Source: Desulfobacterales bacterium
GTDB taxonomy: Bacteria; Desulfobacterota; Desulfobacteria; Desulfobacterales; JAIPEE01
Length of the DNA stretch: 64,000 nucleotides
Reading direction: 5' to 3'
Assembly: GCA_021737275.1 (NCBI GenBank)
Contig: JAIPEE010000018.1
Location: 8,970 to 72,969 of the forward strand
Below, in pieces: positions 38,812 to 56,050 of the stretch; the first letter of the stretch is position 1; every line of letters begins with the position of its first letter. The notes under the pieces were generated by a model. It searched no databases. It was not told where the DNA came from and worked only from the letters and a program-made list of their open reading frames with translations. Position numbers and translations under genes: made by a program.

Positions 38812-38870
38812 TTGTTTTGAATAATACTTTTATCTAAACCCTCAAACCCAAAAAGATGGAGGCAAATAAA

Positions 38871-39245: not shown

Positions 39246-39250
39246 TTATT

Positions 39251-39763: not shown

Positions 39764-39796
39764 TTGAAATGTTGTTGATGTTTTGTTAAACTAAAG

Positions 39797-39849
39797 GCTG
39801 CCCTGCAATATTGCCATTAAAATAATTACCGGCAATCATGCAGGGTAGC
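39797..39849 (+). other. Large intercistronic RNA stem-loop
   Basis: gctgccctgca (39797-39807) pairs with tgcagggtagc (39839-39849), giving 11 bp with one G-U. An inner attgcc/ggcaat helix is also possible. No U-tract follows. Confidence 0.5.
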
Positions 39850-39871
39850 CCCTTAGATTGAGGAGGTGAAC

Positions 39872-40045
39872 ATGATGGATCAGCACTGTCCGGGGTTTGA
39901 AGCAAACAAGACGCTTAATGAGGTTATTTGCAAATGCCCCGACTGCGGCACACAAATTGAACTCTTTTCCGATGAACTGGAAAAAGAAATCGTTTGTAAA
40001 AAATGTGGTAAAAAGCTGGACAAATCACATTGTACACCGGCCTGA
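39872..40045 (+). CDS. Small CxxC...CxxC zinc-ribbon protein (57 aa), not in ORF track
   Basis: AGGAGGTGAAC precedes the ATG. My translation is MMDQHCPGFEANKTLNEVICKCPDCGTQIELFSDELEKEIVCKKCGKKLDKSHCTPA. It lies directly upstream of cydA. Confidence 0.6.
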   Translation: MMDQHCPGFEANKTLNEVICKCPDCGTQIELFSDELEKEIVCKKCGKKLDKSHCTPA

Positions 40046-40103
40046 TTTGGAATATAATGCAGTTTTATTAAATTTTAACCCCCCTTTAAGGAAGGAATAA
40101 CAC

Positions 40104-41420
40104 ATGGACGCCTTATTGCTCTCACGTCTGCAGTTTGCCGCCGCAACCATGTTTCATTTTCTCTTTGTTCCGCTCACACTCGGCCTTTCATTTCTGCTGG
40201 CCTACATGGAGACCCAGTATGTTCGTACGGGTGATGAAACATATCTTAGAATGACAAAATTCTGGGGAAAATTTTTTATTATCAATTTTGCCCTGGGCAT
40301 TGTGACGGGCATTACGCTTGAGTTTCAGTTTGGCACAAACTGGTCCCGCTATTCAAGTTATGTGGGCGACATTTTCGGATCCCTGCTTGCCATTGAAGCC
40401 ACAGCCAGTTTTTTTCTTGAATCCACCCTGATCGGTGTCTGGATCTTCGGATGGAACAAATTATCCAAAAAAGCGCATGCTGCTGTCATGTGGCTGATTG
40501 CAGGAGCAGGGACGCTGTCCGGAGTCTGGATCCTGATTGCCAATGCATGGATGCAGCACCCTGTGGGTTACGTGATTCGGAATGGCCGTGCAGAGCTGGA
40601 TGATTTTATGGCTGTCATCACCCAGAAGTTTGCCATATTGGAGTTTTTCCATACAATTGCTGCAGCCTATATCCTGAGCGCTTTCTTTGTTATGGGTATC
40701 AGTGCTTACCATCTTCTTAAAAAGAATAATATTGATTTTTTTACTCGCTCCTTCAGAATTGCACTTGTTTTCGGTCTTGTTTTTTCATTTTTTGAAATTG
40801 CCGAGGGTCATCTGCATGGTGCAGACCTTGCTGAAGCGCAACCTGCCAAAGTCGCCGCAATGGATGCCCATTGGGAGACTGAAACTCGTGCGCCGATTTT
40901 CATGTTTGCCATACCTGATGAGAAAAATGAAAGAAACCTCGTTGAAATCTTTCCGATACCCGGCATGCTAAGCTTTATGGCTTACCATGATTTTAATGCT
41001 GAGGTTAAGGGACTTAAAGATTTCCCCTTAGACGAACGGCCGCCGGTTCTTATTCCTTTTGTCTCTTTTAAGATAATGGTCATGCTGGGTTTTTACTTTG
41101 GATTTGCAACGATTCTTGGATGGATTTACAGGAACCGCCTCCTTGAAAAACCGTGGTATCTGAAAATGATGCTGCTTTCAATCCCCCTGCCCTACATCGC
41201 AATAGAGATGGGCTGGGTGCTGGCAGAGGTCGGCAGGCAACCATGGATTGTTTATGGTCTCATGAAAACATCAGATGCGGTATCACCCATTGCAGGATCC
41301 CAGGTCATGATATCCCTGATTGCTTTTTTTGTCGTATATGGTCTTCTGGGGCTTATCGGATTCTGGCTGATGTTTAACCATGCCAGAAAAGGCCCGGCTG
41401 AAGTCATTGCACCGTCATAA
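40104..41420 (+). CDS. cydA: Cytochrome bd quinol oxidase subunit I
   Basis: The ORF is 438 aa. MDALLLSRLQFAAATMFHFLFVPLTLG, GW..AE.GRQPW and the overall colinearity are canonical CydA features. Confidence 0.9.
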   Translation: MDALLLSRLQFAAATMFHFLFVPLTLGLSFLLAYMETQYVRTGDETYLRMTKFWGKFFIINFALGIVTGITLEFQFGTNWSRYSSYVGDIFGSLLAIEATASFFLESTLIGVWIFGWNKLSKKAHAAVMWLIAGAGTLSGVWILIANAWMQHPVGYVIRNGRAELDDFMAVITQKFAILEFFHTIAAAYILSAFFVMGISAYHLLKKNNIDFFTRSFRIALVFGLVFSFFEIAEGHLHGADLAEAQPAKVAAMDAHWETETRAPIFMFAIPDEKNERNLVEIFPIPGMLSFMAYHDFNAEVKGLKDFPLDERPPVLIPFVSFKIMVMLGFYFGFATILGWIYRNRLLEKPWYLKMMLLSIPLPYIAIEMGWVLAEVGRQPWIVYGLMKTSDAVSPIAGSQVMISLIAFFVVYGLLGLIGFWLMFNHARKGPAEVIAPS

Positions 41421-41473
41421 TAAACAATCGGCAAATGCCTTAAATTCAAGGCATTTGTAATAAGGAGCATTTT

Positions 41474-42502
41474 ATGGAACTTCAAACTATATGGTTTTTT
41501 GTGTGGGGCCTGTTGTGGGCTGTGTTCTTCATGCTGGACGGATTCAACTTCGGTATCGGATCACTGATGCCGTTTCTGGCAAAAAAGGAGATGGATAAAA
41601 AAATTATGGTTCGGGCCATGGGGCCGTTCTGGGATGGAAACGAAGTCTGGCTTCTGACGGCAGGTGGCGTAACATTTGCAGCTTTTCCGGATGTTTATGC
41701 GGTTATGTTTTCATCACTTTATGCCGCACTCATGCTGGTTCTGTTCTCCCTTATTGTCAGGGGTGTCGGCATTGAGTTCAGAGGCAAACTGGATACACCG
41801 GCCTGGAAAAGACTCTGGGATACCTGTATTTTCATCGGCAGTGCCGCACCTGCAATACTCTTTGGTGTTGCCTTTGCCAATATTTTCCGGGGCATTCCAT
41901 TTGACGGCGAAGGCATCTATCACGGTACGCTGCTGACCCTGCTCAATCCATATGGATTACTTGGCGGTGTGCTTTTTCTCTGTCTTTTTCTACTGCATGG
42001 GGCCAATATGCTGGCGTGTAAAACTAAAGGCGTCTTACACCACTCTGCTGTCCGAACGGCAAACAGGTTGTGGCCGGTTACATTGGTTGTAACGGTAGTT
42101 TTTCTGATAGCCTCCTGGTTTGCCACCGACCTTTATGACAACTACCTGGCATCACCGGTACTGTTTCTGTTTATACTGCTGACAGCACTTTTTCTTGTGG
42201 GTGTAAAAATATTTTTAGTAAAAAATTCATTTATAAAGGCATGGACCGCATCAGCGCTTACGATCGTTGGTGCAACATTCTTTGGCATAATCGGTCTTTT
42301 CCCCAACATGTTTCCTTCCAGCATTAATGCTGATTTCAGCCTAACGGCATTTAACGCTTCGTCCAGCCCGATGACACTGAAAATCATGCTGGGCGTTGTA
42401 ATCATATTTGTTCCTGCTATAATAGCATATCAGTCATGGGCTTACCGGTTATTTAAAGATAAAATTACTGAAGAGTCGCTTGCACATGAAGAAGGATACT
42501 AA
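41474..42502 (+). CDS. cydB: Cytochrome bd quinol oxidase subunit II
   Basis: The ORF is 342 aa. LQTIWFFVWGLLWAVFFMLDGFNFGIG and GPFWDGNEVWLLTAGG are CydB hallmarks. Confidence 0.9.
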   Translation: MELQTIWFFVWGLLWAVFFMLDGFNFGIGSLMPFLAKKEMDKKIMVRAMGPFWDGNEVWLLTAGGVTFAAFPDVYAVMFSSLYAALMLVLFSLIVRGVGIEFRGKLDTPAWKRLWDTCIFIGSAAPAILFGVAFANIFRGIPFDGEGIYHGTLLTLLNPYGLLGGVLFLCLFLLHGANMLACKTKGVLHHSAVRTANRLWPVTLVVTVVFLIASWFATDLYDNYLASPVLFLFILLTALFLVGVKIFLVKNSFIKAWTASALTIVGATFFGIIGLFPNMFPSSINADFSLTAFNASSSPMTLKIMLGVVIIFVPAIIAYQSWAYRLFKDKITEESLAHEEGY

Positions 42503-42514
42503 GAAAGGATACGT

Positions 42515-42859
42515 ATGAAAATTTTTACAGTAGTTATTTGCTCTGTAATGTTGATAGCCGCTTTTGCCTTAGCTGAAAATGTACAGAATAATGGTGAAAG
42601 CATGATGACTATAAATGGCGGAAGCAGGGGCGAAGTTCCTTTTCCCCATGAAAAACACCAGCAGGTTCTGGGAGATTGCAACCATTGTCATAACATCTTT
42701 CCTCAGGAGGCCGGCGCCATTGAGAAACTGAATGCAGATGGAACCCTGTCTTCCAAACAGGTGATGAATCAGTGTAAAGGTTGTCACAAAACGTTGAAGG
42801 ATGCCGGCAAGACGACCGGACCGACAAAGTGCGGAGATTGCCATATCAGAAAGGACTAA
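42515..42859 (+). CDS. Periplasmic trihaem cytochrome c7 (PpcA-like, c3 family)
   Basis: A signal peptide is followed by VPFPHEKHQQVLGDCNHCH ... CKGCHKTLKDAGKTTGPTKCGDCH. This is colinear with Geobacter PpcA (FPHKAHQ..CKKCH..CKGCH..PTKCGECH). Confidence 0.8.
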   Translation: MKIFTVVICSVMLIAAFALAENVQNNGESMMTINGGSRGEVPFPHEKHQQVLGDCNHCHNIFPQEAGAIEKLNADGTLSSKQVMNQCKGCHKTLKDAGKTTGPTKCGDCHIRKD

Positions 42860-42865
42860 CTGTTT

Positions 42866-43834
42866 ATGTTTATTCTTGGTCTTCAGGGCAGCCCGAGAAA
42901 AAAGGGAAATACGGATATCTTGCTTTCAACGTTCATGGGAGAAGCTGAAAAACTGGGCGCAAGAACCCAAACCATTGATGTTACCAGAAAGAATATTGAA
43001 CCGTGCAAAGAGCTGGTCGTCTGTGAGAAAAAAGGGTATTGCCCCATTGAAGATGAAATGGAAAGTGAGGTCTATCCACTGATCAGACAGGCAGATATTA
43101 TTGTTATCGCCTCACCGGTTTTTTTCTACAGTGTATCTGCCCAGCTAAAAGCAGCAATTGATCGATGCCAGATGTTCTGGGCCAGAAAATACTGTCTCAA
43201 ACTGTCCGATCCCCTCAGAAATACACGACGGGGATTTATGCTGGCCGTTGGTGCAACAAAGGGAAAGCTTCTTTTTAGCGGCATTGAATTGCTGACCAAA
43301 ATTTTTTACGATGCGGTCGGTGCCAAATATGAAGGAAGCCTTACCTATCGAGGTGTGGAAAAACGCGGTGAGATAGCGGATCACCCTACGATGAAAGAAG
43401 ATGTTAAAAATGCGGTTGCTAAACTGTTGCAGCCGCTTATGAAACGGAAGAAAGTTCTTTTTGCCTGCCGGGAAAATGCCTGTAGGAGCCAGATAGCCGC
43501 AGCTTTTGCCCAGCAGCTGGCCGGCGATAGAATTGAAGCCCTGTGCGGCGGCAGCACACCCATTGAGAAAATCAATCCAATGATGTCTGAAGTTATGGCC
43601 GAATCAGGTATTGACATGGAATACAGGGTTCCGCAATCTATTGAAGATGCACTGGTTGACGGCAACCCGGAAATAATTGTAACAATGGGCTGCGGTGAGG
43701 CGTGCCCGATTTTGCCGGGTACTCAAAGAATTGACTGGGATCTTGAAGACCCGGCCGCACAATCAATTGAGTTCATGCGGAAAACAAGAGATGAAATTGA
43801 ACAAAAAGTAATAGATCTGATAAAGGATCTTTAA
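42866..43834 (+). CDS. Fusion protein: flavodoxin-like FMN reductase domain + ArsC/LMW-PTP domain
   Basis: The N-terminus ILGLQGSPRKKGNT...IVIASPVFFYSVSAQLK is NADPH-FMN-reductase/Isf-like. The C-terminus has VLFACRENACRSQ (the CX5R P-loop) and TMGCGEACP (the thioredoxin-type ArsC Cys pair). Confidence 0.75.
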   Translation: MFILGLQGSPRKKGNTDILLSTFMGEAEKLGARTQTIDVTRKNIEPCKELVVCEKKGYCPIEDEMESEVYPLIRQADIIVIASPVFFYSVSAQLKAAIDRCQMFWARKYCLKLSDPLRNTRRGFMLAVGATKGKLLFSGIELLTKIFYDAVGAKYEGSLTYRGVEKRGEIADHPTMKEDVKNAVAKLLQPLMKRKKVLFACRENACRSQIAAAFAQQLAGDRIEALCGGSTPIEKINPMMSEVMAESGIDMEYRVPQSIEDALVDGNPEIIVTMGCGEACPILPGTQRIDWDLEDPAAQSIEFMRKTRDEIEQKVIDLIKDL

Positions 43835-43852
43835 GAAAAGAGGTTATTTAAT

Positions 43853-44032
43853 ATGTCATCAACCGGTATGTGGCAATGCCAGGGAGCATCTTGTGGATTC
43901 ATCTATGATCCGGCAAGAGGAGATAAAAGAGGTAAAATTCCTAAAGGCATAAATTTTGAGGACCTTCCGGATGACTGGAAATGTCCGGTTTGCGGTGTAT
44001 CCAAAAGAATGTTTAAATCACTGGATGTTTAA
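43853..44032 (+). CDS. Rubredoxin-like protein with C-x4-C first site (59 aa), not in ORF track
   Basis: My translation is [59 protein letters not shown]. It has the rubredoxin core ([18 protein letters not shown]), but the first site is CQGASC rather than CxxC. Confidence 0.75.
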
Positions 44033-44098
44033 TAAACATATGAATTAAATGATATTTGATTCATTTCTTTTAACTCAACTTAAAATAAGGAGAAAACA

Positions 44099-44260
44099 AT
44101 GGAAAAGTATGTATGTGAAGTTTGCGGCTATGTTTATGACCCGGCAAAAGGCGATCCTGACAATGGTGTAGCTCCGGGAACAGCATTTTCAGATGTTCCC
44201 GATGATTGGGAGTGCCCTGTTTGCGGTGCCGGAAAAGATGATTTTGTTGTTGAAGAATAA
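44099..44260 (+). CDS. rub: Rubredoxin (53 aa), not in ORF track
   Basis: AAGGAG precedes the ATG. The translation [53 protein letters not shown] is a canonical CxxCG...CPxCG rubredoxin. Confidence 0.9.
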
Positions 44261-44283
44261 AAAAATAATCGCAGGGGAAAAGA

Positions 44284-45468
44284 ATGAAGCCTTTTGAAAT
44301 TGCAGATGGAATCTACAGTGTCGGTGTTGCTGACTGGAATGTAAGGAACTTTCACGGCTATTCAACTGAAAAAGGAACGACCTATAATGCGTTTCTGCTC
44401 ATTGATGAAAAGGTTACTCTCATTGATACAGTCAGGCGGGAGTTCAAGGATCAGTTTTTAAAAAACATCTCAAAAATCATTGATCCAAAAAAAATTGACT
44501 GTGTCATTAGCAACCATACTGAAATGGATCACTCCGGATCTTTGCCTTTTTTGATGCATATAATCGGTGCTGAAAAACCGGTGTACTGTTCCAAAATGGG
44601 TTTTAAGAGTCTTCCGCTTCATTTCAGGCCGGAACTGAATTATCAGGCGCTTGAAAATGGCAGTAAATTAAGCATCGGCAAGCGAACACTCCAATTTCTT
44701 GAAACAAGAATGCTGCACTGGCCGGACAGTATGTTTACCTATCTCAAAGAGGATAAAATTCTTTTTTCCAGCGATGCCTTTGGCCAGCATTATGCCGGTC
44801 CCAAAAGGTTTGATGATGAAATTGATGATCTGATTTTACATCAGGCCAAAAAGTATTATGCCAACATTCTGATGCTTTATGGCAGGAAAACGGGTAAACT
44901 TCTAAAAACCGTTGAAGAGATGGGTCTTGATATTAAGATGATCTGTCCGGATCATGGTATTCTCTGGCGGAAAAATCCCGAAAGGATTATTCGCAAATAT
45001 GAAAAATGGAGTAGCCAGGAATCCAAACGTAAAGCGGTTATTGTTTATGATACCATGTGGCATAGTACGGAGCAGATGGCAGAAAAAATTGCAGAGGGCA
45101 TCTCTGATGAAGGTGTGGAGGCCATGCCACTTCGCCTTGGGAGATGCCACCGGAGCGACATTATGACGGAGGTTCTTGATGCAAAAGCCGTTATTGTCGG
45201 CTCTCCGACATTAAACAACCAGCTCTACCCATCCGTCAGTGAGTTTTTAACTTATATGAAGGGCCTTAAGCCTAGGGGAAAAGTGGGTGCTTCATTTGGA
45301 TCATTTGGATGGAGCGGCGAAGCTGTCCGGCTTATCCGTCAAGAACTTGAGGAGATGGAGTTTGAAATCCCGGATCCGGGTCTCAAAATCAAATATGTTC
45401 CCGACGCAGCAGGTAATGACGCCTGTTATGAGTTCGGTCGAAAAGTTGGAAAAGCGATAGGAAAATAA
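44284..45468 (+). CDS. roo: Flavodiiron protein (FprA family; rubredoxin:oxygen oxidoreductase-like)
   Basis: An MBL-like diiron domain (SNHTEMDHSGS) is followed by a C-terminal flavodoxin domain. The gene sits immediately downstream of rubredoxin, as in Desulfovibrio rub-roo. Confidence 0.9.
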   Translation: MKPFEIADGIYSVGVADWNVRNFHGYSTEKGTTYNAFLLIDEKVTLIDTVRREFKDQFLKNISKIIDPKKIDCVISNHTEMDHSGSLPFLMHIIGAEKPVYCSKMGFKSLPLHFRPELNYQALENGSKLSIGKRTLQFLETRMLHWPDSMFTYLKEDKILFSSDAFGQHYAGPKRFDDEIDDLILHQAKKYYANILMLYGRKTGKLLKTVEEMGLDIKMICPDHGILWRKNPERIIRKYEKWSSQESKRKAVIVYDTMWHSTEQMAEKIAEGISDEGVEAMPLRLGRCHRSDIMTEVLDAKAVIVGSPTLNNQLYPSVSEFLTYMKGLKPRGKVGASFGSFGWSGEAVRLIRQELEEMEFEIPDPGLKIKYVPDAAGNDACYEFGRKVGKAIGK

Positions 45469-45475
45469 GACAATA

Positions 45476-45667
45476 ATGAAATTTCCTGTTGTAGAACTTG
45501 ATCAGTGTATTCTCTGCGGTGTCTGTGAAGATGTATGTCCTGAAGTGTTTCATTTAAATGATAGTGGATATATAGAAGTAAAAGACCTTTCCGAATATCC
45601 GGAAAACGAAGTTGATGATGCTATAAAAAACTGCCCTGCTGATTGCATTGACTGGCAGGGCAGTTGA
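45476..45667 (+). CDS. Small [4Fe-4S]/[3Fe-4S] ferredoxin
   Basis: CILCGVCEDVCP ... CPADC occur in 63 aa. Confidence 0.8.
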   Translation: MKFPVVELDQCILCGVCEDVCPEVFHLNDSGYIEVKDLSEYPENEVDDAIKNCPADCIDWQGS

Positions 45668-45678
45668 ACTGTTATTAT

Positions 45679-46359
45679 ATGACAAACAATACTTTAAAAG
45701 GAAGACAACTTAAAAAGATTGTTTATCAGTCATTGAAACGCAACAATCCGGACGATCTGAAACCGTATCCCCCACGCCAGGTTGTCAACCCCCTTTTTTC
45801 CTTTCTATATAGCAATGAAGAGATCATTAAATGGCGGGCCATAACGGCAATGGGCATTGTTGTATCCGGTCTGGCCAATACAAATATTGAATCAGCGCGT
45901 GTTATCATGCGCCGCTTTTTGTGGAATCTGAATGATGAATCAGGCGGCATAGGCTGGGGTTCTCCTGAAGCTTTAGGTGAAATAATGGCACATCATCAAA
46001 AGCTTTCCGATGAATATTCCAATATTCTGATTTCATATATCAGGGAAGACGGTAATTATCTTGAGCATGAAGTGCTGCAATGCGGCGCTCTCTGGGGCGT
46101 TGGCCGCCTTGCCCGATTCCGCCCGGATCTTGTACAACAGGCCGAACCACATCTTATCCCGTTTCTGACATCAGCTATAAGGGCACATCGCGGATTAGCA
46201 GCATGGGCCATCAAACCGATCATAACGAATCTGTCAAAACCCTTTTTAAAAAAGCTGAAAAATGATACAGAAATAGTCACTGTATTTGAAAATAACCAGT
46301 TAAACAGATGGCCGATAAATCAGATCGTAAAATCAGATCATATCAACGTATCGGATTAG
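45679..46359 (+). CDS. Hypothetical soluble helical-repeat (HEAT-like) protein
   Basis: The ORF is about 226 aa and helix-rich (WRAITAMGIVV..., ALWGVGRLA...). No catalytic motif is recognised. The start is ATG 45679 or TTG 45664. Confidence 0.5.
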   Translation: MTNNTLKGRQLKKIVYQSLKRNNPDDLKPYPPRQVVNPLFSFLYSNEEIIKWRAITAMGIVVSGLANTNIESARVIMRRFLWNLNDESGGIGWGSPEALGEIMAHHQKLSDEYSNILISYIREDGNYLEHEVLQCGALWGVGRLARFRPDLVQQAEPHLIPFLTSAIRAHRGLAAWAIKPIITNLSKPFLKKLKNDTEIVTVFENNQLNRWPINQIVKSDHINVSD

Positions 46360-46391: not shown

Positions 46392-47474
46392 ATGGACCCT
46401 TTATCACTTATACCCTCACCTGATGCCCTGCCGGTATCTTATGGCTGGCTCAAGGCATTATTACTTTCAACCTTCACGCTTCATATCGTTTTTATGAATA
46501 TTATGGTCGGGTCATGTATTGTTGCACTCTTTTCAGGACAGGGCAAATACGATGCCGCTAATACCCCATCCGTACAGAATGACTTAACCGGAAAGTTGAC
46601 ATTTATCGTCGCCTTTACCATTAACCTGGGTGTAGCTCCGCTGCTTTTCCTGCAGGTCCTCTACGGCAACTTTTTTTACACCAGTTCTGTTTTAATGGCA
46701 TCTTACTGGCTTTCAGTAATCCCCTTGCTGATTATTGCATATTACAGTGTCTATATCAGCAAGATGAAATTTCAGTCTCCGGGACCCCGGTGGCGTTTTT
46801 TAATGTGGCTCACCACCGCTATCTTTCTTATTATCGGATTTCTGTTTTCTAGCAATATGACCATGATGCTTCGTCCGGACACCTGGTCTGCTTATTTCAG
46901 TGCACCTGGCGGCACCATATTAAATCTCGGTGACAAAACACTCTGGCCAAGATATCTCCACTTTATGACCGCTTCAATTGCAGCGGGCGGTCTTTTTTCG
47001 GCCTTTCTTGGAAACCAAAGACTTAAAAAAGGCCTGGCGGGCAACGATAAAAGAATAGCTGCCGGCATGAAGTGGTTTACCCATGCCACCATGCTCCAGC
47101 TAGTAATCGGTACCTGGTTTCTCATGAGTCTGCCTTCACATATTAGCCGCCAGTTCATAGGTGGCAATACAACAGCTACGATTTTATTTACTTTAGGCTT
47201 TGCAGCTGCAATAGTTGCCATTTTTTTCGGATACAAGAAGAAAGTCCGGCTGTCATCGGTAATGTTTCTCATCACCGTGATTCTGATGGTATTGATGCGA
47301 GATCTTCTCAGAACAGCATTTCTGAAACCGTATATATCCCTGAGCGATATTCCTGTAACAAATGACTATTTACCCATGTTTATTTTTATAATATCGCTTG
47401 TCATCGGTATTGGTGTGATGGTTTATATGTTGCGGTTAACAGCAACAGCCGTGAAAAAACAGCAAAATATGTAA
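46392..47474 (+). CDS. Polytopic membrane protein, possible bd-like partner subunit
   Basis: The ORF is 360 aa with about 8-9 hydrophobic segments. The first helix carries His (FTLHIVFMNIMVG), and LGVAPLLFLQVLYG echoes the CydA block LGIVTGITLEFQFG. The similarity is weak. Confidence 0.5.
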   Translation: MDPLSLIPSPDALPVSYGWLKALLLSTFTLHIVFMNIMVGSCIVALFSGQGKYDAANTPSVQNDLTGKLTFIVAFTINLGVAPLLFLQVLYGNFFYTSSVLMASYWLSVIPLLIIAYYSVYISKMKFQSPGPRWRFLMWLTTAIFLIIGFLFSSNMTMMLRPDTWSAYFSAPGGTILNLGDKTLWPRYLHFMTASIAAGGLFSAFLGNQRLKKGLAGNDKRIAAGMKWFTHATMLQLVIGTWFLMSLPSHISRQFIGGNTTATILFTLGFAAAIVAIFFGYKKKVRLSSVMFLITVILMVLMRDLLRTAFLKPYISLSDIPVTNDYLPMFIFIISLVIGIGVMVYMLRLTATAVKKQQNM

Positions 47475-47482
47475 TTTTTTTT

Positions 47483-47518
47483 CTTAATCGTACACTTAAT
47501 CATAATCTTAATCGGTTC
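47483..47518. repeat. 3 x 12-bp imperfect tandem repeat (CTTAATC core)
   Basis: The units are cttaatcgtaca / cttaatcataat / cttaatcggttc, starting at 47483, 47495 and 47507. They lie in the 115-nt gap between the two bd-like genes. Confidence 0.6.
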
Positions 47519-47589
47519 TTAAAAAACTGTGATTACGGGTACGGTCAAGATTCTGATCAAAAACGACTAATATAACTTTGGACGATACT

Positions 47590-50226
47590 ATGAATTATCC
47601 GGTCTGGGACCTTTCAACATTCGGTGGCGGTTTTTGGATAGCATTTATTGCTGTCATTCATGTTTATGTTGCTCACTTTGCCGTTGGCGGTGGTTTTTTC
47701 CTTGTAATCACGGAAATGTGGGCAGCACGTGAAGACAGCTCTGAAATACTTGCCTATGTCAAAAAACATACGCAGTTTTTCCTTTTATTATCTGTAGTTT
47801 TTGGCGCTGTAACAGGTGTCGGAATCTGGTTTACCATCTCCCTGCTCAGCCCTGCCGGCACTTCTTCTTTGATTCATACCTTTGTTTTTGCCTTTGCTAC
47901 GGAGTGGGTCTTTTTTCTGGGTGAAATTATAGCCATTTTTATCTATTATTATACGTTTGATAAAATGGCTCCCAAACAACATCAGTTTATCGGGTGGTGT
48001 TATGTCGGTTTTGGCTGGCTTTCACTTTTTACCATAAACGGCATTGTCTCTTTTATGCTGACGCCCGGCGACTGGCTCACAACACATAATTTTTGGGATG
48101 CATTCTTCAATCCTACATTTTCACCGGCGCTGTTTTTCAGAACATTTATGGCATTAATGCTTGCCGGACTTTTTGGGTTTGTGACGTCTGTCTATATAAA
48201 GGGGAAACCTCTTCGGGACAAAATGCTCAAGTATTGTGCCGTATGGCTGATTCTTCCGATGATATTACTTGTTCTTTCTGCTTTCTGGTATGCGGCTGCG
48301 CTTCCGGAAGCTCAAACGGAAATGATGTTCAGTTTATCACCTGAAATCATGCCGTTTTTGAAACTGTTTACCTGGCTGACACCTGTCATTATGCTGACAG
48401 CCATATTTTTGGCCATACGGTTTTTTCCTGTTTCACTTAAAAAAGTAACCGCTTTTTGCCTGATCATAATGGGTCTTTTATATATGGGTTCATTTGAATG
48501 GATGCGGGAAGCAGCCAGAAAACCGTATATTATTTTCGGATACACATTTTCAAATTCCATTAATACGGCAGATTTAGAAGCTGTTACAAAAACCGGCATT
48601 CTAAAATCAGCCCGATGGGTCTCTCATAAAGAGATTACACCGGAAAATCAAATGACGGCAGGCCAGGAGATATTCAGACTGATGTGCAGTCCATGCCACT
48701 CTGTCGGGGGGCCGATAAATGATATTCTTCCCGTTACAAAAAAATACCCGGTTTTTGCAATGGATGCCATGATCAACGGCATGGGCAAAATTGATACTTA
48801 CATGCCCATATTTCCCGGCACTAAAATTGAAAGAGAAGCCCTCGCAGCCTATATTGTAAAAGGGCTTCATGACAGGCCGGATGAAAAAACACCGCCTGAA
48901 CCGAACACGCTTGTCGCAGAAAAGATACCGCCATTTAATGCGGACAAAGATGAATATATTCTCCTTGCATGGAATAACACCGGCATGCAGACGATTTCAG
49001 ACAGCGACCCGTTCTGGTCCATTCAACCGCCGGGAAATACGATCTATGCCCAGTTGATCCGAAGAGGTGAACTTCCGGAACTAGTGACAGATGATGTTAT
49101 TATTGAATACAGTGCGCCGCCTGAGTTTGCGTTTCCGGCCAGACATGTTTCTTTCTGGAGCTATGCGGAATCACTCTTTGGCAAAACACCCCAACTTGAT
49201 ACCGGCTTAACCGGGAACGGTCTTAAAGGCGAAATGGCGCCACACCCATCGGAGAATGCCTTTATCGCAGAGATGGTTCCTGTAGTACCCTATCCGGAAA
49301 ACGCTGTATACAATCCCTATCCTGTTTTTACAGTAACCGCTCGGGAAGCTGATTCCGGAGATATTCTTGCAACTGCAAAAACGGTTGTACCGGTCTCTAC
49401 GGAAATGGGGTGCAGAAATTGTCACAATGGTAATTGGCGAATTGATGATCGCACCGGCATAGGGGCTGTCACCTCATCTGATATACTTGCGGTACATGAT
49501 GAAAAAACCGGAACAACGCTGCTTGAACAGGCAGAGAATGGCTCACCCAAAGCATGTAAATCCTGTCATACGCCGGATGATCCGAAAATATTGAACCTTT
49601 CGGCATCCATTCATGGTTTCCATGCCAATTACCTTGCCGGTATGGGTGATGCGGCCTGTCATACGTGCCACCCGTCATCACCGGATGGTGCGACAAGGAG
49701 CTTCAGGGGTTTTCATAACAGTATGGATTTTTCATGCTCAAGTTGCCATGGCCGTATGGAAGACCATGCCCTGGCTCTTCTGATTAATGAAAAAAAGACA
49801 GGAAAGGAAAGGGCCGAAACACTTTTAAAATATCTTTCCCCGAAAGCGGTAAAAAAGATATCTGAAATCAACCCGAGAAAGCCCTGGGTAAATGAACCGG
49901 ATTGTCTGCACTGTCATATTAATTTTGAGATGCCGGATACCGATGAAGTAGAAATTAACAGCCGGACCACATCTGAATCCGGGCTGTTCCGTAACCGGAC
50001 AGATGATGCCGGCATTATGTGTGCCGCCTGTCACGGTATCACCCATGCGGTTTATCCGGCAGAAAACCCGTTCAGTTCAAACAGGGATGTTCTGCAGCCC
50101 ATGCAGTACCAGGGCAATGCTTACCCGATAGGTGCCAATAAAAACTGCCGTTTATGCCATACCATAGATATGGAAGATGAAATGCATCATCCCAATACAT
50201 TGACAATGTTCAGGAACACATATTGA
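47590..50226 (+). CDS. Cytochrome bd subunit-I-like membrane domain fused to a monohaem and a heptahaem c-type cytochrome region
   Basis: The N-terminal ~330 aa is colinear with the window's own CydA: AVIHVYVAHF vs ATMFHFLFVP, FGAVTGVGIWF vs LGIVTGITLEF, and ATEWVFFLGE vs IEATASFFLE. CSPCH follows at 48685-48699, then seven CXXCH between 49411 and 50160. ATG 47590 is preferred over TTG 47578. Confidence 0.75.
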   Translation: MNYPVWDLSTFGGGFWIAFIAVIHVYVAHFAVGGGFFLVITEMWAAREDSSEILAYVKKHTQFFLLLSVVFGAVTGVGIWFTISLLSPAGTSSLIHTFVFAFATEWVFFLGEIIAIFIYYYTFDKMAPKQHQFIGWCYVGFGWLSLFTINGIVSFMLTPGDWLTTHNFWDAFFNPTFSPALFFRTFMALMLAGLFGFVTSVYIKGKPLRDKMLKYCAVWLILPMILLVLSAFWYAAALPEAQTEMMFSLSPEIMPFLKLFTWLTPVIMLTAIFLAIRFFPVSLKKVTAFCLIIMGLLYMGSFEWMREAARKPYIIFGYTFSNSINTADLEAVTKTGILKSARWVSHKEITPENQMTAGQEIFRLMCSPCHSVGGPINDILPVTKKYPVFAMDAMINGMGKIDTYMPIFPGTKIEREALAAYIVKGLHDRPDEKTPPEPNTLVAEKIPPFNADKDEYILLAWNNTGMQTISDSDPFWSIQPPGNTIYAQLIRRGELPELVTDDVIIEYSAPPEFAFPARHVSFWSYAESLFGKTPQLDTGLTGNGLKGEMAPHPSENAFIAEMVPVVPYPENAVYNPYPVFTVTAREADSGDILATAKTVVPVSTEMGCRNCHNGNWRIDDRTGIGAVTSSDILAVHDEKTGTTLLEQAENGSPKACKSCHTPDDPKILNLSASIHGFHANYLAGMGDAACHTCHPSSPDGATRSFRGFHNSMDFSCSSCHGRMEDHALALLINEKKTGKERAETLLKYLSPKAVKKISEINPRKPWVNEPDCLHCHINFEMPDTDEVEINSRTTSESGLFRNRTDDAGIMCAACHGITHAVYPAENPFSSNRDVLQPMQYQGNAYPIGANKNCRLCHTIDMEDEMHHPNTLTMFRNTY

Positions 50227-50240
50227 GGTAAAAATTAAAA

Positions 50241-51722
50241 ATGAAAATCAAGCGTAACTGGATTTTTCACCTGACCCTTATGACTGCTTCCGCACTATTG
50301 ATACAAGGGTGCGTCTATCCAAAAAACCATACCTACGAAAGTATTCAAAAAGAATATGCGGATATTATCTGTAACATAACACCTACGGATGATATGGTTG
50401 CCGCGCAGGACGGCTGTATAATGGATAAAAAAATATCGCTTCGTGAAGCTGTATCCATAGCCATTTCAAATAACCCTGACAGTAAAATAGCGGTTTCCCG
50501 CATCATGCAGGCCTATGCATCACTTGAAAAAACCAATGCGCCGTTCCTCCCTGCTATCGGTTTTTATACGGAATATATGCAGGGTGATTCGCCATCCGCC
50601 TATCTTTTTAAAACAGTAGACCGGAGAGAACTGCCGGCAGCAGCTGATTTTAATTATCCCGGCTGGTTTGAAAACTATGAAACAGGCGTCAATGTTCGCA
50701 TGAATCTGTATAAAGGTGGAAAGGACATCATGAATCACCGAATGGCCGAACGCGAACTTGAAGCAATGCAGTATGACCGCCGGCGTGTTGAAAATGAACT
50801 GATCACAGCGGTTATTCATTCCTATTACAATTGCCTCTCAGCAAAAAAGTTTGTCGATATCGCCATTGAATCTGTTGAAACGGTTGAGTCCCAGCTCAAG
50901 GTTATGACGGTTCGTTATAATGCCGGTGGTGCGCTCAGGTCGGATATACTCACACTGGATGTACGACTTGCAGAGGCTATGGAGGAATCGGTAAGGAGTA
51001 AAAATAATTTGGAAATTTCCATGGCGGTTCTGGCCAATGTTTTAGGCGCCGACCCGGACAGCAGGATTTTGCTTTCGGAAGAAAACACCTGTCTTCTAAC
51101 CGTACCGGAAGATTATGATGCCGGCATTACGCATGCGCTTCTGTACCGGCCTGAACTGAACAAACTCAGGGCACACCTCAGGCAATCAAGAATTGCGCTG
51201 GATGCAGCCAAAACCGATTACTATCCCACGGTTGATTTTGAGACAAGATACTATTTTGATGATGAAAACATGAACTATGATCGTGATAAGGATAACTGGA
51301 CGGCCGGCATTCTTCTGAACTGGGATATTTTCACAGGTTTCAGCACGGTTTCTGATACAAAAAAGGCGGAAGCCGTTGTCGAAGAATTGCTGGCCGCAGA
51401 TCGGAAAACCGGGCTGGATATCAAGCTGGATGTAAAAACAGCATATCTGAAGCTTGACGGCGCTACAGCTCGGCTTAATGTCGCCAAGCGTAGTGTCGCC
51501 ATGGCAGAAGAGTCGCTGAAGCTTGTTAAACAGCAATATGAGGGCGGATCTGCAACGATAACCCGCTATCTCGAAGCTGAGCTGGACAATAACCGGTCAA
51601 AAATCAGAGCAACGGCAGCCTTTTATGACAGGGAAAAAGCCCTGGCCGACGTCGGCAGGGCAATCGGATTCTGGTCAAAACCATTCACATCAGAACAGGA
51701 CAGCCAAAATGAAGTTGAATAA
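50241..51722 (+). CDS. Efflux transporter outer-membrane lipoprotein (TolC/NodT family)
   Basis: The lipobox is LIQGC. There are two OEP repeats with typical coiled regions, in 493 aa. Confidence 0.8.
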   Translation: MKIKRNWIFHLTLMTASALLIQGCVYPKNHTYESIQKEYADIICNITPTDDMVAAQDGCIMDKKISLREAVSIAISNNPDSKIAVSRIMQAYASLEKTNAPFLPAIGFYTEYMQGDSPSAYLFKTVDRRELPAAADFNYPGWFENYETGVNVRMNLYKGGKDIMNHRMAERELEAMQYDRRRVENELITAVIHSYYNCLSAKKFVDIAIESVETVESQLKVMTVRYNAGGALRSDILTLDVRLAEAMEESVRSKNNLEISMAVLANVLGADPDSRILLSEENTCLLTVPEDYDAGITHALLYRPELNKLRAHLRQSRIALDAAKTDYYPTVDFETRYYFDDENMNYDRDKDNWTAGILLNWDIFTGFSTVSDTKKAEAVVEELLAADRKTGLDIKLDVKTAYLKLDGATARLNVAKRSVAMAEESLKLVKQQYEGGSATITRYLEAELDNNRSKIRATAAFYDREKALADVGRAIGFWSKPFTSEQDSQNEVE

Positions 51723-52848
51723 AAGATTAATTCTTATAAGTGCCGCAATCGGAATTGGCGTTATTCTTATTGTCATGTTTGTTGTCTCATCCTTCAAGAT
51801 CTCTCCCGGGCTTGAAAAAGTGTCGGGAATTAAGAGAGATATTCCTTCAAATACGGCCCGTGCCGAAATAAAAACTATAACGGAATGGTATGAAGCCGTC
51901 GGTACGGTTCGCCCCCATACGGAAATCAGAATTGAAGCACAGGTAACGGCACAGGTGACGGATGTAAAAGTCAATCATGGCGACAAGGTGGAAAAAAATC
52001 AACTCCTTGTCGTCCTTGACAGTCGGCAGTTTCTTTCCAGACTGGATCAGGCCAGGGAGGGATTGAAAATAGCTAATGCTGCAAAGAAAAAGGCTTCACA
52101 GGCAAAGATTTCAGCACAGGCTGCTATGTCAGAGGCAGCGTCAGCATATAAAAGAACAAAAACCTATTTTGAATCACAGGCGGCAACCGCCCAGGATCTT
52201 GAACAGTCAGAATCCGCATTTCTTCAGGCACAAGCCGGTTTGAATCAGGCCGAAGAGTCACTAACGGCAACTGCAGCCGGAATTCGCCACGCAGAAGAAG
52301 TCATCAAGGAAGCGGAATTTGCTTTAGAATATACAAAAATCAAAGCACCTGAAACCGGTGAAGTTTTAAAACGTCTGGTCGAACCGGGGGACCTGGCCCT
52401 GCCGGGCAAGCCGCTGGTTATATTGCAGGCCAGTGGTGCATTGCGCCTTGAAGCAAATGTTCGGGAAGGCATGATCTCCCAAATTGGCCCCGGCACAAAA
52501 CTCCAGGCTTCCATTGATCCGCAAGATGACAATATTGATGTCACGGTCGAAGAGATAGTGCCTTATGCCGATCCGGAAACCCGCACATTTATCGTAAAGG
52601 TCTCTCTGCCCATGGATATCGGCCTCTACCCCGGCATGTATGGTAAGCTTCTGATTCCGGTAGAAGAGGTACGGATAGTAGCCATTCCGCAAAGTGCGGT
52701 TAAGCAGATTGGCCAACTGGAACTTGTTTCCGTTAAGGTGGATGAAATTTGGACAATCCGATATATCAAAACCGGAAAAAAAATTGACGGTCTGGTAGAA
52801 GTACTTTCCGGTTTGAGCGGTAATGAAATCATAGGGCTGGAGGGATGA
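51709..52848 (+). CDS. Efflux RND periplasmic adaptor (MFP/HlyD family)
   Basis: I chose ATG 51709 (MKLNKRLILISAAIG..., a TM anchor), which overlaps the upstream stop codon. Coiled-coil hairpin, lipoyl and beta-barrel motifs are present. Confidence 0.8.
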   Translation: MKLNKRLILISAAIGIGVILIVMFVVSSFKISPGLEKVSGIKRDIPSNTARAEIKTITEWYEAVGTVRPHTEIRIEAQVTAQVTDVKVNHGDKVEKNQLLVVLDSRQFLSRLDQAREGLKIANAAKKKASQAKISAQAAMSEAASAYKRTKTYFESQAATAQDLEQSESAFLQAQAGLNQAEESLTATAAGIRHAEEVIKEAEFALEYTKIKAPETGEVLKRLVEPGDLALPGKPLVILQASGALRLEANVREGMISQIGPGTKLQASIDPQDDNIDVTVEEIVPYADPETRTFIVKVSLPMDIGLYPGMYGKLLIPVEEVRIVAIPQSAVKQIGQLELVSVKVDEIWTIRYIKTGKKIDGLVEVLSGLSGNEIIGLEG

Positions 52849-52852
52849 GGAC

Positions 52853-55800
52853 ATGACCCTTCTTAAGTCCATTGTTGCCGGTTTCCTGAATTCAAGACTC
52901 TCCATCATCCTGATTATCGCTTCACTTTGTCTGGGCATAGCTGCCGTAATGATAACACCAAGGGAAGAGGAGCCCCAGATTGTAGTTCCACTGGCAGATG
53001 TTTATATCTATGCACCCGGTGCCGGCGCCGGCGAAATTGAAAAACTGGTTGCCACACCCCTTGAAAGACTGCTGTGGCAAATAGATGGTGTGGAATATGT
53101 ATACTCCATGTCACGGCAGGATATGGCAATTGTCACTGTCCGGTTTTTCGTTGGTGAGGACAGAGAAAATTCTCTGGTAAAACTTCACAACAAAATTTCC
53201 ATGAATATTGACAGTGCACCGCCCATTGTTTCCGGCTGGGTGATAAAACCTGTTGAAATTGATGACGTCCCGATAACTAATATTACGCTTTATGCAGAGC
53301 AATACAATGACCATGAACTCCGTAGAATTGGCGAAGAGGTTCTTTCAAGGCTTTCAAGTATTGAAGATATATCCAGAGTAAATATCATCGGCGGTCGAAA
53401 ACGCGAAATACTGGTCGAACTCATTCCGGAAAAGCTTTCCGGATACGGCATCTCAATTAATGAAGTTCAGCAGGTTCTCCGGGGCGCAGATGTTTCAGTT
53501 TATGCCGGGAGCTTTTCCCGATTTAACAAGGAACATGAAGTCATCAGCCACTCTTTTTTATCTTCTGCCGGTGATGTATCAGCGCTTATGGTTGGCGTTA
53601 AAGGGGATCGGCCCGTATACCTTCGGGATATTGCATCTGTAACGGATGGGCCCGAAGAGATGAAAAGCTATTCTCATATCGGCCACTCCTATTACTTTCG
53701 TAAAACCCATAACATTGAAAATGAACCGTTGTCTTATCCGGCAGTAACCCTTGCGCTGGCCAAGAAAAAAGGTACCAATGCCGTTACGGTTTCGCGTAAT
53801 ATTATTAAGGAATTGGAGATACTTAAGAAAACAATTATTCCTGACAGTGTAAAAGTTGAAATCACCCGAAATTATGGTGAAACAGCCCAGCAGAAGGTAA
53901 ACGGCCTTTTAGGATCACTTGCATTTGCCATTGTTTCGGTTGTTATCCTGCTGGCGTTGACGCTCGGCTGGCGTGAAGCGGTAGTGGTTGCACTGGCTGT
54001 TCCCATCAGCTTCTCGCTTGCCCTTTTTGTCAATTACCTTTTCGGCTATACCATTAACCGGGTAACCCTGTTTGCCCTGATTCTCTCTCTGGGCCTGGTT
54101 GTCGATGATCCGATTACCAATGTTGACAATATCCAGCGTCATATTCTGACCGGTGCAAGGAACTCTGTTGAGGCAACACTTTTTGCCGTTGGCGAAGTAC
54201 TTCCGCCGGTAATCATGTCCACCCTGGCTATTATTATCTGTTTTATTCCCCTCTTCTTTATAACCGGCATGATGGGACCCTATATGGCGCCCATGGCGTC
54301 AATGGTTCCTGTAACGGTTGTTTTCTCCACTTTCTGTGCATTAACCATTGTCCCGTGGCTGACACATCTGCTTTTAAAAAATAAAAGTAAAACGGGAGTT
54401 ACCGGCTCAAAACAAAATAAGCCGGAAAATTCAGCCATCCACAAAATTTACAGAAAGATTGTTGATCCTTTTCTGGAATCAAGTCAAAAGAGAAAAGCCC
54501 TCTTTTTAACGGTTATCGGGCTCTTAATTGTACCTATTCTTCTGGCTGTTGTAAGACTTGTACCTTTAAAAATGCTGCCGTTTGATAACAAGAACGAGTT
54601 TCAGGTTATTATTGATATGCCCGAAGGTACAACCCTTGAACATACCGGCATGGTCGTTCAGGATTTTGAAAACTACCTCAGGCAAATCAGGGAAGTAACT
54701 AATTTTGTCTCCTATGTCGGCACTGCATCACCCATCGATTTCAATGGCCTTGTCAGACATTACTATCTGAGAAACAGCGGACACCTTGCCGATATCCGGG
54801 TCAACCTGGTAGATAAAAGTCAGCGCAAGCAGCAGAGTCATGGAATTGTACTTCGTATCCGTAAGGATCTTGAGCAGCTCGCATTAAAGCACAATGCATC
54901 CATCAAGCTTGTTGAAGTACCGCCGGGGCCACCTGTGTTATCGACCATTGTAACGGAAATATATGGTGAACCGGATCGCTCCTATGAGCAGTTGATTGAA
55001 GGCGCGGATCATATCAAAAAAATCATGGCGGATGAGCCTTTTCTGGTTGATATTGATGACTCCTCTGAAGAACCCCGGTCCAGAATCAACTTTATACTGG
55101 ATAAGGAAAAAGCAGCACTTCATGGTGTAACCGCCCAGACAATTATTACCTCTTTACAAATTGCGCTGGGCGGCTCAACGGTAGCAACCGTTCATGCACC
55201 CGGAGAACGCCAACCGCTTATGGTTAAAACAATTCTTCCGGTCGATAAGCGATCCGGCGTTACAGCCCTAAAACAGATACCGGTCAAAACAATGTCCGGA
55301 AGCCTGGTGCCGCTAGCCGAGCTTGTGCGGATTGACTATTCTTCTGAAGATCAGCCCATCTATCACAAAAACCTTAAACGTGTTGTTTTTGTTTATGGCG
55401 AAATGGCCGGGCGGGCACCTGGTGAAGCCGTTCTTGATATGCAGAAACGGTTAAAAAATGATCCTTTGCCGAAAGGATTGGTGGCGGAATGGGCCGGTGA
55501 AGGAGAATGGAAAATTACACTGAGTGTATTCCGGGATATGGGCATTGCATTTGCAGCCGCACTTTTAGGTATATATATTCTCCTGATTCTGACAACCAAT
55601 TCTTTTTTCATGCCCGTGCTGATCATGATGGCTATTCCCCTGACGTTGATCGGTGCTATGCCGGGATTCTGGCTGCTTAACCTTATTACCGGCAATACGG
55701 TTGGCGGATTTTCAAACCCGGTATTTTTTACGGCTACCGGTATGATCGGAATGATTGCCCTTGGCGGCATTGTTATACGAAACTCGCTGGTACTGATTGA

Positions 55801-56050
55801 ATTTATTCAGCAAGAAATAAAGGCAGGCACCCCCTTTAAGGAAGCCATCCTGCAAAGCGGCGCTATTCGGATGCGGCCCATTGTGCTGACAGCAGCGACA
55901 ACAGCACTGGGGGCATGGCCGATTACGCTTGACCCTGTTTTTTCAGGATTGGCCTGGACACTAATATTCGGATTACTGGCATCTACTGCTTTTACATTAT
56001 TGATTGTGCCGGTAACATATTATGCGCTTTTTAAAGACAAGATCAGTTAA
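52853..56050 (+). CDS. RND family efflux permease (AcrB/CzcA superfamily)
   Basis: The ORF is 1065 aa with a 12-TM architecture and two large periplasmic loops. The conserved TM4 context is GLVVDDPIT. Confidence 0.9.
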   Translation: MTLLKSIVAGFLNSRLSIILIIASLCLGIAAVMITPREEEPQIVVPLADVYIYAPGAGAGEIEKLVATPLERLLWQIDGVEYVYSMSRQDMAIVTVRFFVGEDRENSLVKLHNKISMNIDSAPPIVSGWVIKPVEIDDVPITNITLYAEQYNDHELRRIGEEVLSRLSSIEDISRVNIIGGRKREILVELIPEKLSGYGISINEVQQVLRGADVSVYAGSFSRFNKEHEVISHSFLSSAGDVSALMVGVKGDRPVYLRDIASVTDGPEEMKSYSHIGHSYYFRKTHNIENEPLSYPAVTLALAKKKGTNAVTVSRNIIKELEILKKTIIPDSVKVEITRNYGETAQQKVNGLLGSLAFAIVSVVILLALTLGWREAVVVALAVPISFSLALFVNYLFGYTINRVTLFALILSLGLVVDDPITNVDNIQRHILTGARNSVEATLFAVGEVLPPVIMSTLAIIICFIPLFFITGMMGPYMAPMASMVPVTVVFSTFCALTIVPWLTHLLLKNKSKTGVTGSKQNKPENSAIHKIYRKIVDPFLESSQKRKALFLTVIGLLIVPILLAVVRLVPLKMLPFDNKNEFQVIIDMPEGTTLEHTGMVVQDFENYLRQIREVTNFVSYVGTASPIDFNGLVRHYYLRNSGHLADIRVNLVDKSQRKQQSHGIVLRIRKDLEQLALKHNASIKLVEVPPGPPVLSTIVTEIYGEPDRSYEQLIEGADHIKKIMADEPFLVDIDDSSEEPRSRINFILDKEKAALHGVTAQTIITSLQIALGGSTVATVHAPGERQPLMVKTILPVDKRSGVTALKQIPVKTMSGSLVPLAELVRIDYSSEDQPIYHKNLKRVVFVYGEMAGRAPGEAVLDMQKRLKNDPLPKGLVAEWAGEGEWKITLSVFRDMGIAFAAALLGIYILLILTTNSFFMPVLIMMAIPLTLIGAMPGFWLLNLITGNTVGGFSNPVFFTATGMIGMIALGGIVIRNSLVLIEFIQQEIKAGTPFKEAILQSGAIRMRPIVLTAATTALGAWPITLDPVFSGLAWTLIFGLLASTAFTLLIVPVTYYALFKDKIS

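Follow-up and report, generated by a model that had tools for sequence, protein, structure and literature searches.

Can a cytochrome bd-like membrane protein that continues into eight c-type haem sites act as a terminal reductase, and if so, from where would it take its electrons? The question is raised by two adjacent genes in a stretch of 64,000 nucleotides of Desulfobacterales DNA (the window; all coordinates count from its first letter). The original prediction, made from the sequence, described these genes as a two-gene membrane module of bd-like type joined to eight c-type haems, and saw in them either an enzyme reducing O2 or another oxidant, or a conduit carrying electrons from quinol to the periplasm. 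Our comparative analyses uphold the structural description and assign the pair to the OR-C1 family, with the upstream gene encoding OR-C1b and the downstream gene encoding OR-C1a (Table 1). We think it fairly probable, from the residues that the family keeps and those that it has lost, that OR-C1 is a cytochrome c-fed, proton-consuming O2 reductase.

Table 1. Positions of the OR-C1 gene pair, its domains and the surrounding features in the window.
Feature	Coordinates	Strand	Basis
Gene for a sigma-54-dependent activator, 5' of the oxygen-defence cluster	35144-36496	+	
Oxygen-defence cluster, 5' of the pair and on the same strand; context, outside the conserved module	38236-46359	+	Pfam/NCBIfam
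Canonical CydAB genes	40104-42502	+	
OR-C1b, partner subunit of 360 aa, free of haem c	46392-47474	+	ORF translation, profile and fold comparison
OR-C1a, predicted catalytic subunit of 878 aa, CydA-like membrane domain plus eight c-type haem sites	47590-50226	+	ORF, Pfam, homologues
OR-C1a membrane domain, residues 1-310, eight transmembrane helices, N-out/C-out	47590-48519	+	Pfam PF01654, hhalign, Foldseek, AlphaFold2
OR-C1a class I (c6/c551-like) monohaem cytochrome c domain, residues 354-426	48649-48867	+	Profile search, conservation
OR-C1a beta-rich periplasmic domain, residues 431-607, without family assignment	48880-49410	+	AlphaFold2, conserved motifs
OR-C1a heptahaem domain, residues 608-867	49411-50190	+	Pfam, seven CXXCH

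Both open reading frames (ORFs), the positions given for their CXXCH motifs and the peptide blocks quoted from them are present in the translations as described. The OR-C1a frame is open from 47578, and translation from ATG 47590 begins with MNYPVW, in agreement with the consensus among the homologues, and this start defines the length of the protein. One haem site, CSPCH, lies at 48685-48699, and seven more (CRNCH, CKSCH, CHTCH, CSSCH, CLHCH, CAACH and CRLCH) fall within 49411-50160. We assessed conservation in 79 species-level orthologues of OR-C1a (46-58% identity to the window protein) and 71 orthologues of OR-C1b (34-50% identity); counts of gene pairs and neighbours refer to 80 loci, in which the neighbours within 6 kb were clustered. 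All eight CXXCH motifs are kept in each of the 79 OR-C1a orthologues, which for sequences this divergent is far beyond chance.

Could a frameshift, or an error of assembly or annotation, have joined unrelated membrane and multihaem genes? In a metagenome-assembled genome this is a general possibility, and that is all that speaks for it. The frame runs uninterrupted through the same eight motifs in 79 independent genomes; OR-C1a has more than 3000 homologues, of which the best 120 are all about 850-910 aa long with the same domains; and the AlphaFold2 model keeps a predicted local distance difference test (pLDDT) score of 71-89 across the junction (residues 310-360). We regard an artefact as vanishingly improbable, and the comparative data rule out the frameshift that the original prediction had raised against its own fusion. 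The protein search also returned an entry that is 100% identical to OR-C1a (P0001). A genome scan located OR-C1 in no fewer than 578 species-level genomes, model strains of Desulfovibrio among them; the hosts are mostly Desulfobacterota, with others in the Bacteroidota, Calditrichia, Krumholzibacteriia, Melioribacteraceae and further groups.

The membrane domain of OR-C1a is clearly recognizable as a relative of CydA, subunit I of the canonical bd oxidases. Residues 17-242 match the Pfam family Cyt_bd_oxida_I (PF01654) with 40.3 bits against a cut-off of 26.2, in agreement with the family proposed earlier for the large protein. When the OR-C1a family alignment was compared by hhalign with a profile built from 36 diverse CydA sequences, taken from a representative search, helices 1-6 aligned with a probability of 97.4% (E 1e-11). 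The colinearity with the window's own CydA that had first drawn attention to the gene is real but weak at the pairwise level: BLASTP gives an E-value of only 0.003, over a span that includes the Gly/Thr block and the paired-acid helix, and the pairing of the first-helix His is recovered by profile methods and not by BLASTP. A phmmer search of the PDB with the whole protein gave a marginal match to a CydA chain (5doq_A, E 0.001); for the multihaem part it had no useful match. The AlphaFold2 model (pLDDT 78, predicted template-modelling score 0.73) has eight membrane helices, and a Foldseek comparison with the PDB places CydA chains in all of the top ten positions (E 9e-8 to 2e-5), followed by subunit II chains; the matches take in subunit I of every solved bd oxidase. 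Loops rich in Lys and Arg follow helices 1, 3, 5 and 7 of the modelled sequence, which places the N-terminus and the extension after helix 8 in the periplasm. Covalent attachment of haem needs a periplasmic location.

The residues that support catalysis in CydA can be followed into OR-C1a. By profile alignment, H24, E105, E112, H131 and S145 of OR-C1a correspond in that order to H18, E98, E106, H125 and S139 of the window CydA, and to H19, E99, E107, H126 and S140 of E. coli CydA. The two Glu residues are spaced E-x6-E, which is the shortened spacing of qOR3 and qOR4, and the window CydA has one residue more between them. The end of helix 8 carries FEWMREAARKPYIIFG, aligned in a BLAST high-scoring segment pair to the CydA motif AEVGRQPWIVYG, and a local hhalign comparison sets REAARKPY against CydA AEVGRQPW (86%, E 4.7e-6). 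This alignment puts E307 on E. coli E445 and R310 on R448; E445 is the Glu ligand of the second high-spin haem in CydA, and E307 would be its counterpart. H24, H29, E105, E112, S145, R184, E303, R306, E307 and R310 are each invariant in the 79 orthologues. Position 131 has His in 71 of them and Arg in eight. H24 and E307 correspond to the His and Glu ligands of the two high-spin haems, E105 to the Glu beside the O2-binding haem, and E112, S145 and H131 to the proton pathway. The original prediction had asked whether candidate haem ligands would disappear in an alignment; H24 and E307 do not, in any orthologue.

What has gone is equally specific. At the position of a haem b558 ligand (H183 in the window CydA, H186 in E. 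coli) OR-C1a has an invariant F183-R184 pair, and it lacks the equivalents of both b558 ligands, H186 and M393. The Q-loop is missing as well: in the AlphaFold2 model helix 6 runs to residue 237, with two residues before the start of helix 7 at 240, and the Q-loop residues K249 and E254 of the window CydA have no counterpart. As read from these alignments, the di-haem active site of CydA and its proton pathway from the cytoplasmic side persist in OR-C1a, and only the quinol-oxidising part (the Q-loop and the b558 ligands) is lost. The missing Q-loop speaks against quinol as the substrate, and the buried Glu residues, being conserved, speak against a role limited to conducting electrons.

The periplasmic extension contains three domains. 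A profile of the first, the monohaem domain, matches cytochrome c6 (2v08) in the PDB over its full length (E 0.0024), and its score against Pfam Cytochrome_CBB3 (24.2 bits) lies under the 27-bit cut-off. Its C366, C369, H370 and M405 (48802-48804) are present in all 79 orthologues, and M405 is likely, from its conservation, to be the sixth ligand of the monohaem c. The beta-rich domain that follows is well conserved, and has no Pfam match at E<=1 across residues 431-607. Its modelled strands (456-462, 483-491, 503-508, 557-563, 579-586 and 592-599) mostly have pLDDT values of 78-93, and the conserved motifs PPGN, QLIRRG, PVVPY and NPYP lie in this domain. In the heptahaem domain, residues 688-864 match Pfam MtrC/MtrF domain II/IV (34.5 bits, cut-off 30), Cytochrome_C7 (33.4, cut-off 24.8) and Cytochrom_c3_2 (27, cut-off 25). 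Eight conserved His residues outside the CXXCH motifs are candidate distal ligands: H636, H675, H678, H709, H819 and H867 occur in 78-79 of the 79 orthologues, and H726 and H866 in 76. They are enough for bis-His ligation of all seven haems, and the pattern suggests that the seven are probably all bis-His coordinated, as in low-potential electron wires. A catalytic multihaem domain like that of octahaem reductases was considered and rejected, given that all eight sites are standard CXXCH and that the conserved His and Met residues suffice for six-coordination.

OR-C1b has no Pfam or NCBIfam match, and single-sequence and profile searches of the PDB return noise only, so that its link to the bd superfamily comes only from profile-profile and fold comparison. 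Both comparisons agree. By hhalign, the OR-C1b and OR-C1a alignments match over 275 columns (94.9%, E 4e-8), and OR-C1b matches the CydA profile (86.6%, E 4.5e-6) with H31 on H19 and H190 on H186. The AlphaFold2 model (pLDDT 82, predicted template-modelling score 0.83) has nine membrane-length helices, and the distribution of Lys and Arg fits an N-out/C-in topology; the best Foldseek matches are to CydB (5doq_B, template-modelling score 0.59-0.63) and to CydA chains. In 73 of the 80 loci OR-C1b lies directly 5' of OR-C1a, often with the genes overlapping, and we take the pairing, with OR-C1b first, to be obligate. The suggestion that the upstream gene encodes the partner subunit is thus borne out by paralogy, fold and adjacency. 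On the alignments and the model, OR-C1b is a CydA-derived paralogue with a bd fold.

Y105 and L112 of OR-C1b stand where the channel Glu residues would be, and none of the 71 orthologues carries a CXXCH motif. H31 (46482-46484), H190 (46959-46961), M299 (47286-47288), R187, R303 and R307 are invariant in all 71. A b558-like haem ligated by H190 and M299 was considered and not adopted; M299 lies in the middle of transmembrane helix 8, off the M393 position. A protein identical to OR-C1b is annotated in a Desulfobacterales metagenome-assembled genome.

The His residues of OR-C1b bear on the second function that had been proposed. The pair may instead span the membrane as an electron conduit that joins the menaquinone pool to the cytochromes of the periplasm and has no terminal oxidant, much as in the Qrc or Cbc-type complexes found in Desulfobacterota. 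The His that ligates the quinol-oxidising haem b558 in CydA is present in OR-C1b; the heptahaem extension resembles, through its Pfam matches to c7, c3 and MtrC models, the cytochrome modules of quinone-interacting complexes; and the literature on cable bacteria proposes a quinol-to-periplasm route through a CydA homologue. However, neither subunit has a Q-loop with its K252 and E257, the connections after helix 6 being short in both, and high-spin haem ligands invariant in 79 of 79 orthologues, together with a Glu/Ser/His proton pathway that varies only at H131, would be needless in a simple wire. We judge the conduit decidedly unlikely. Of the two functions first proposed, an enzyme reducing O2 or another oxidant is the better supported by the sequences: the high-spin ligands and the Glu/Ser/His proton channel are kept, and the Q-loop and b558 ligands are gone.

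Families of this kind have been described before. Murali, Gennis and Hemp (2021; bioRxiv 10.1101/2021.01.16.426971) divided the bd superfamily by phylogenomics into qOR, OR-C and OR-N. In their account OR-C1a is an eight-helix CydA without a quinol site whose periplasmic C-terminal haem c extension carries 1 to 8 CXXCH motifs, OR-C1b is an adjacent paralogue with eight transmembrane helices, and the OR-C family is proposed to use cytochrome c as donor and O2 as substrate. Supplementary Table 7 of that preprint holds at least 70 OR-C1a proteins with 8 CXXCH (among them Dde_0291, DGI_4051, Dbac_2631 and THEYE_A0176) from Desulfovibrio, Desulfomicrobium, Desulfobulbus, Thermodesulfobacterium, Thermodesulfovibrio and Draconibacterium, and its OR-C1b list includes haem-free partners from Desulfovibrio, Desulfomicrobium and Thermodesulfovibrio named 'hypothetical protein'. 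A 2026 structural paper treats the qOR/OR-C/OR-N classification as standard, and all solved bd structures are of the qOR type. The window OR-C1a agrees with the reference of Supplementary Table 6 (WP_151150981.1) at H24, V77, W80, E105, E112, Y119, Y121, H131, S145 and F183, with identical numbering; by these diagnostic residues, used in place of a tree or a hidden Markov model classifier, the window pair is a member of OR-C1a/OR-C1b, and no feature of it speaks against membership.

The haem c-fused bd clades that, according to the original prediction, surveys had flagged without biochemistry correspond to the OR-C family of 2021, and the find is much less new than had been implied, the eight-haem form being already tabulated for many cultured Desulfovibrio and their relatives. 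Searching the literature by family name, by locus tags of orthologues from cultured strains and by combinations of terms returned no work on the biochemistry, genetics or expression of an OR-C protein; the original prediction, too, knew of no biochemical characterisation. The window proteins differ from the published description in three respects. OR-C1a has the E445/R448 motif (E307/R310) where Table S6 shows a dash; OR-C1b has nine predicted helices and not eight, which is a difference of description and not of homology; and OR-C1b keeps His at both the H19 and the H186 positions. The E307/R310 motif, the two His positions of OR-C1b and the lineage-specific oxygen-defence context described below go beyond the 2021 paper.

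Comparison with other bd systems helps to define what is distinctive about the pair. Canonical CydAB (qOR1-3; E. coli 6RKO and G. thermodenitrificans 5DOQ) is likewise a heterodimer of two related subunits of eight to nine helices, and shares with OR-C1 the subunit folds, the high-spin haem ligands and the Glu-Glu proton pathway. Unlike canonical CydA, OR-C1a has no Q-loop, H186/M393 b558 site or ninth transmembrane helix and has eight covalent c haems in addition; unlike canonical CydB, OR-C1b has no match to Pfam PF02322, which the window CydB matches with 337 bits, and keeps the CydA-type His residues. The electron donor would be a cytochrome for OR-C1, by prediction, where it is quinol for CydAB. 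CydAA' (qOR4a/qOR4b) of Caldivirga maquilingensis is the only biochemically tested bd enzyme composed of two CydA paralogues (bioRxiv 10.1101/2021.01.16.426971). Its subunit II resembles OR-C1b in being derived from CydA, in having His at the H19 position and in lacking the channel Glu residues; the H186 equivalent is lost in CydA' (A190), whereas OR-C1b has His there, and subunit I retains the quinol site and the b558 ligands and is without haem c. OR-N proteins (Nitrospirota, Nitrospinota and Manganitrophus) also lack a quinol site, are predicted to use cytochrome c or other periplasmic donors, and occur as pairs of a and b paralogues, of which b has an H186-equivalent His; like OR-C1, they are biochemically uncharacterised. 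They differ from OR-C1 in having 10-14 helices and no fused haem c, in the H186 equivalent that most of their a-type subunits retain, and in taxonomic range and operon partners. In the cbb3 and caa3 oxidases, fused or bound c-type subunits deliver periplasmic electrons to the O2-reducing centre. The parallel with these haem-copper enzymes, in which a class I His/Met cytochrome c feeds a membrane haem that reduces O2, is one of function only: they belong to an unrelated catalytic superfamily with another fold, and OR-C1 has no copper site.

If OR-C1 is a cytochrome c-fed O2 reductase, electrons would be loaded onto the heptahaem wire of OR-C1a by low-potential periplasmic cytochromes. Candidates for this role can be found in the c3/c7 pool that hydrogenase or formate dehydrogenase feeds, and perhaps in a trihaem c7-like protein encoded 5 kb upstream. 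The electrons would go on to the monohaem c, which would replace haem b558 as the entry to a b595/d-type haem pair, and O2 would be reduced to water at that pair with protons taken from the cytoplasm. Such an enzyme would remove O2 and add to the membrane potential while bypassing the quinone pool.

Several points weigh against this proposal. No OR-C member has been purified; that the enzyme reduces O2, which haems it contains (b or d) and what donates its electrons are matters of inference. The mechanism assumes that the monohaem c lies near the E307/H24 site, and it leaves the invariant His pair of OR-C1b unexplained. The family is concentrated in strict anaerobes, and another oxidant is conceivable. 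Finally, homologues of the oxygen-defence genes are found near the pair in only 10 of the 80 loci. The original prediction had taken the position of the pair at the end of an oxygen-defence operon as favouring an O2-related role; at this frequency the argument is weak, and we have dropped it as an argument for the family as a whole. For this lineage the context does support a role related to O2, though it is no family property.

A bd-type site fed by cytochrome c might also serve as a periplasm-fed detoxifying reductase whose physiological substrate is H2O2, NO or peroxynitrite. Side reactions with H2O2 and with species derived from NO are known for canonical bd oxidases. Most of the hosts are strict anaerobes, the neighbours of the window pair include rubrerythrin and desulfoferrodoxin, which handle peroxide and superoxide, and the neighbouring flavodiiron protein scores highest against NCBIfam models of NO-reductase flavorubredoxins, though below their cut-offs (448.7 against 635). 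Against this, all characterised relatives with a bd-type site, CydAA' included, are O2 reductases, the gene context is not kept across the family, and the sequence holds nothing that separates the reduction of O2 from that of H2O2 or NO. We consider this reading unlikely.

It is tempting to speculate that both OR-C1 subunits, unlike those of every solved bd oxidase, carry redox cofactors, with one or more haems in OR-C1b at H31, H190 and M299, and that the complex is a quinone-independent, energy-conserving bd-type cytochrome c oxidase linking a periplasmic pool of hydrogenase or formate dehydrogenase and cytochrome c3 directly to O2. This we put forward tentatively, as a possibility that we rather doubt. 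Were it true, OR-C1b would be an electron store or a second entry point and not a passive scaffold.

Sulfate reducers and other 'strict' anaerobes consume O2 fast, a capacity credited to canonical bd and haem-copper oxidases that are fed by quinol or by dedicated cytochromes. If OR-C1 is a bd-type oxidase that draws directly on the periplasmic multihaem pool, it would add a third way of removing O2, one that bypasses the quinones and might also conserve energy. No other bd enzyme has been shown to work with cytochrome c, and this one would test how the di-haem site functions with a c haem in place of b558. The family is a worthwhile biochemical target, its discovery having been published in 2021; the window pair is one more member, and what it offers is an unusually complete same-strand oxygen-defence cluster as a physiological hint.

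That cluster contains genes for rubrerythrin, desulfoferrodoxin, ferritin, CydA, CydB, a secreted trihaem c7-like cytochrome, a fusion of FMN_red and LMWPc domains, two rubredoxins, a flavodiiron protein and a HEAT protein of the DVU0298 family. The order desulfoferrodoxin, CydAB, c7-like cytochrome, FMN-reductase fusion, rubredoxins, flavodiiron protein and HEAT protein is repeated at one other locus (L001, 58% identity). No homologue of rubrerythrin or ferritin was found at L001, a locus that reaches only 131 bases 5' of its desulfoferrodoxin match. Among the 80 loci no other neighbour family occurs in more than 7, and a larger conserved operon or additional dedicated subunits were rejected on that count. 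The conserved module is the two OR-C1 genes alone.

Scans for sigma-70 promoters and terminators gave counts near or modestly over the shuffled background, and neither prove nor disprove a single transcript; no intergenic plus-strand terminator was found between 44284 and 50241. Homologues of the sigma-54-dependent activator encoded 5' of the cluster also occur near the pair at L001 and at a second locus (L011). The -24/-12 consensus (TGGCAC-N5-TTGCW, with one mismatch allowed) has no match anywhere in the window. The spacer between OR-C1b and OR-C1a is 115 nt long and holds, at 47483-47513 (+), three exact copies of CTTAATC with a 12-nt period. The paired CTTAATC pattern occurs nowhere else in the window (0.01 expected) and is absent from similar spacers at two other loci (L007 and L008). 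In the majority of the other genomes OR-C1b runs right up to OR-C1a or overlaps it.

Some of the individual neighbours deserve comment. The trihaem cytochrome (42515-42859, +) is a c7/c3-like protein with a signal peptide and three CXXCH motifs, and begins 12 nt past cydB, an order also seen at L001. It is an unusual companion for a quinol oxidase and a candidate donor to the heptahaem domain of OR-C1a. The next gene (42866-43834, +) is a single ORF joining an NADPH-dependent FMN reductase to a low-molecular-weight phosphotyrosine-phosphatase/ArsC-like domain, and is likewise present at L001. Two rubredoxin genes, 43853-44032 (+, 59 aa, 71.9 bits) and 44099-44260 (+, 53 aa, 90.8 bits; both Pfam Rubredoxin), lie just 5' of the flavodiiron gene as an rd-roo-like unit that ORF lists restricted to at least 80 aa miss. 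The HEAT-repeat protein (45664-46359, +; 230 bits against the NCBIfam DVU0298 family) is encoded between the flavodiiron gene and OR-C1b. At L011 its gene again follows the flavodiiron gene, on the strand opposite to the OR-C1 pair, an arrangement from which it seems tied to the flavodiiron protein and not to OR-C1; the sole literature match for DVU0298 is a mis-citation for a CO dehydrogenase.

On the other side of the pair, an RND efflux set (50241-56050, +; outer-membrane factor, HlyD-type adaptor and AcrB-type pump) begins 14 nt past the OR-C1a stop codon, and an outer-membrane factor or other RND parts also lie 3' of OR-C1a at L003, L007, L008, L020, L039, L040 and L061. The oxygen-defence region is flanked on the opposite strand by a probable type III restriction-modification pair (27434-33233, -), composed of a ResIII helicase-like protein of 898 aa, whose C-terminal end weakly resembles TnsA, and an N6/N4 DNA methylase of 760 aa.

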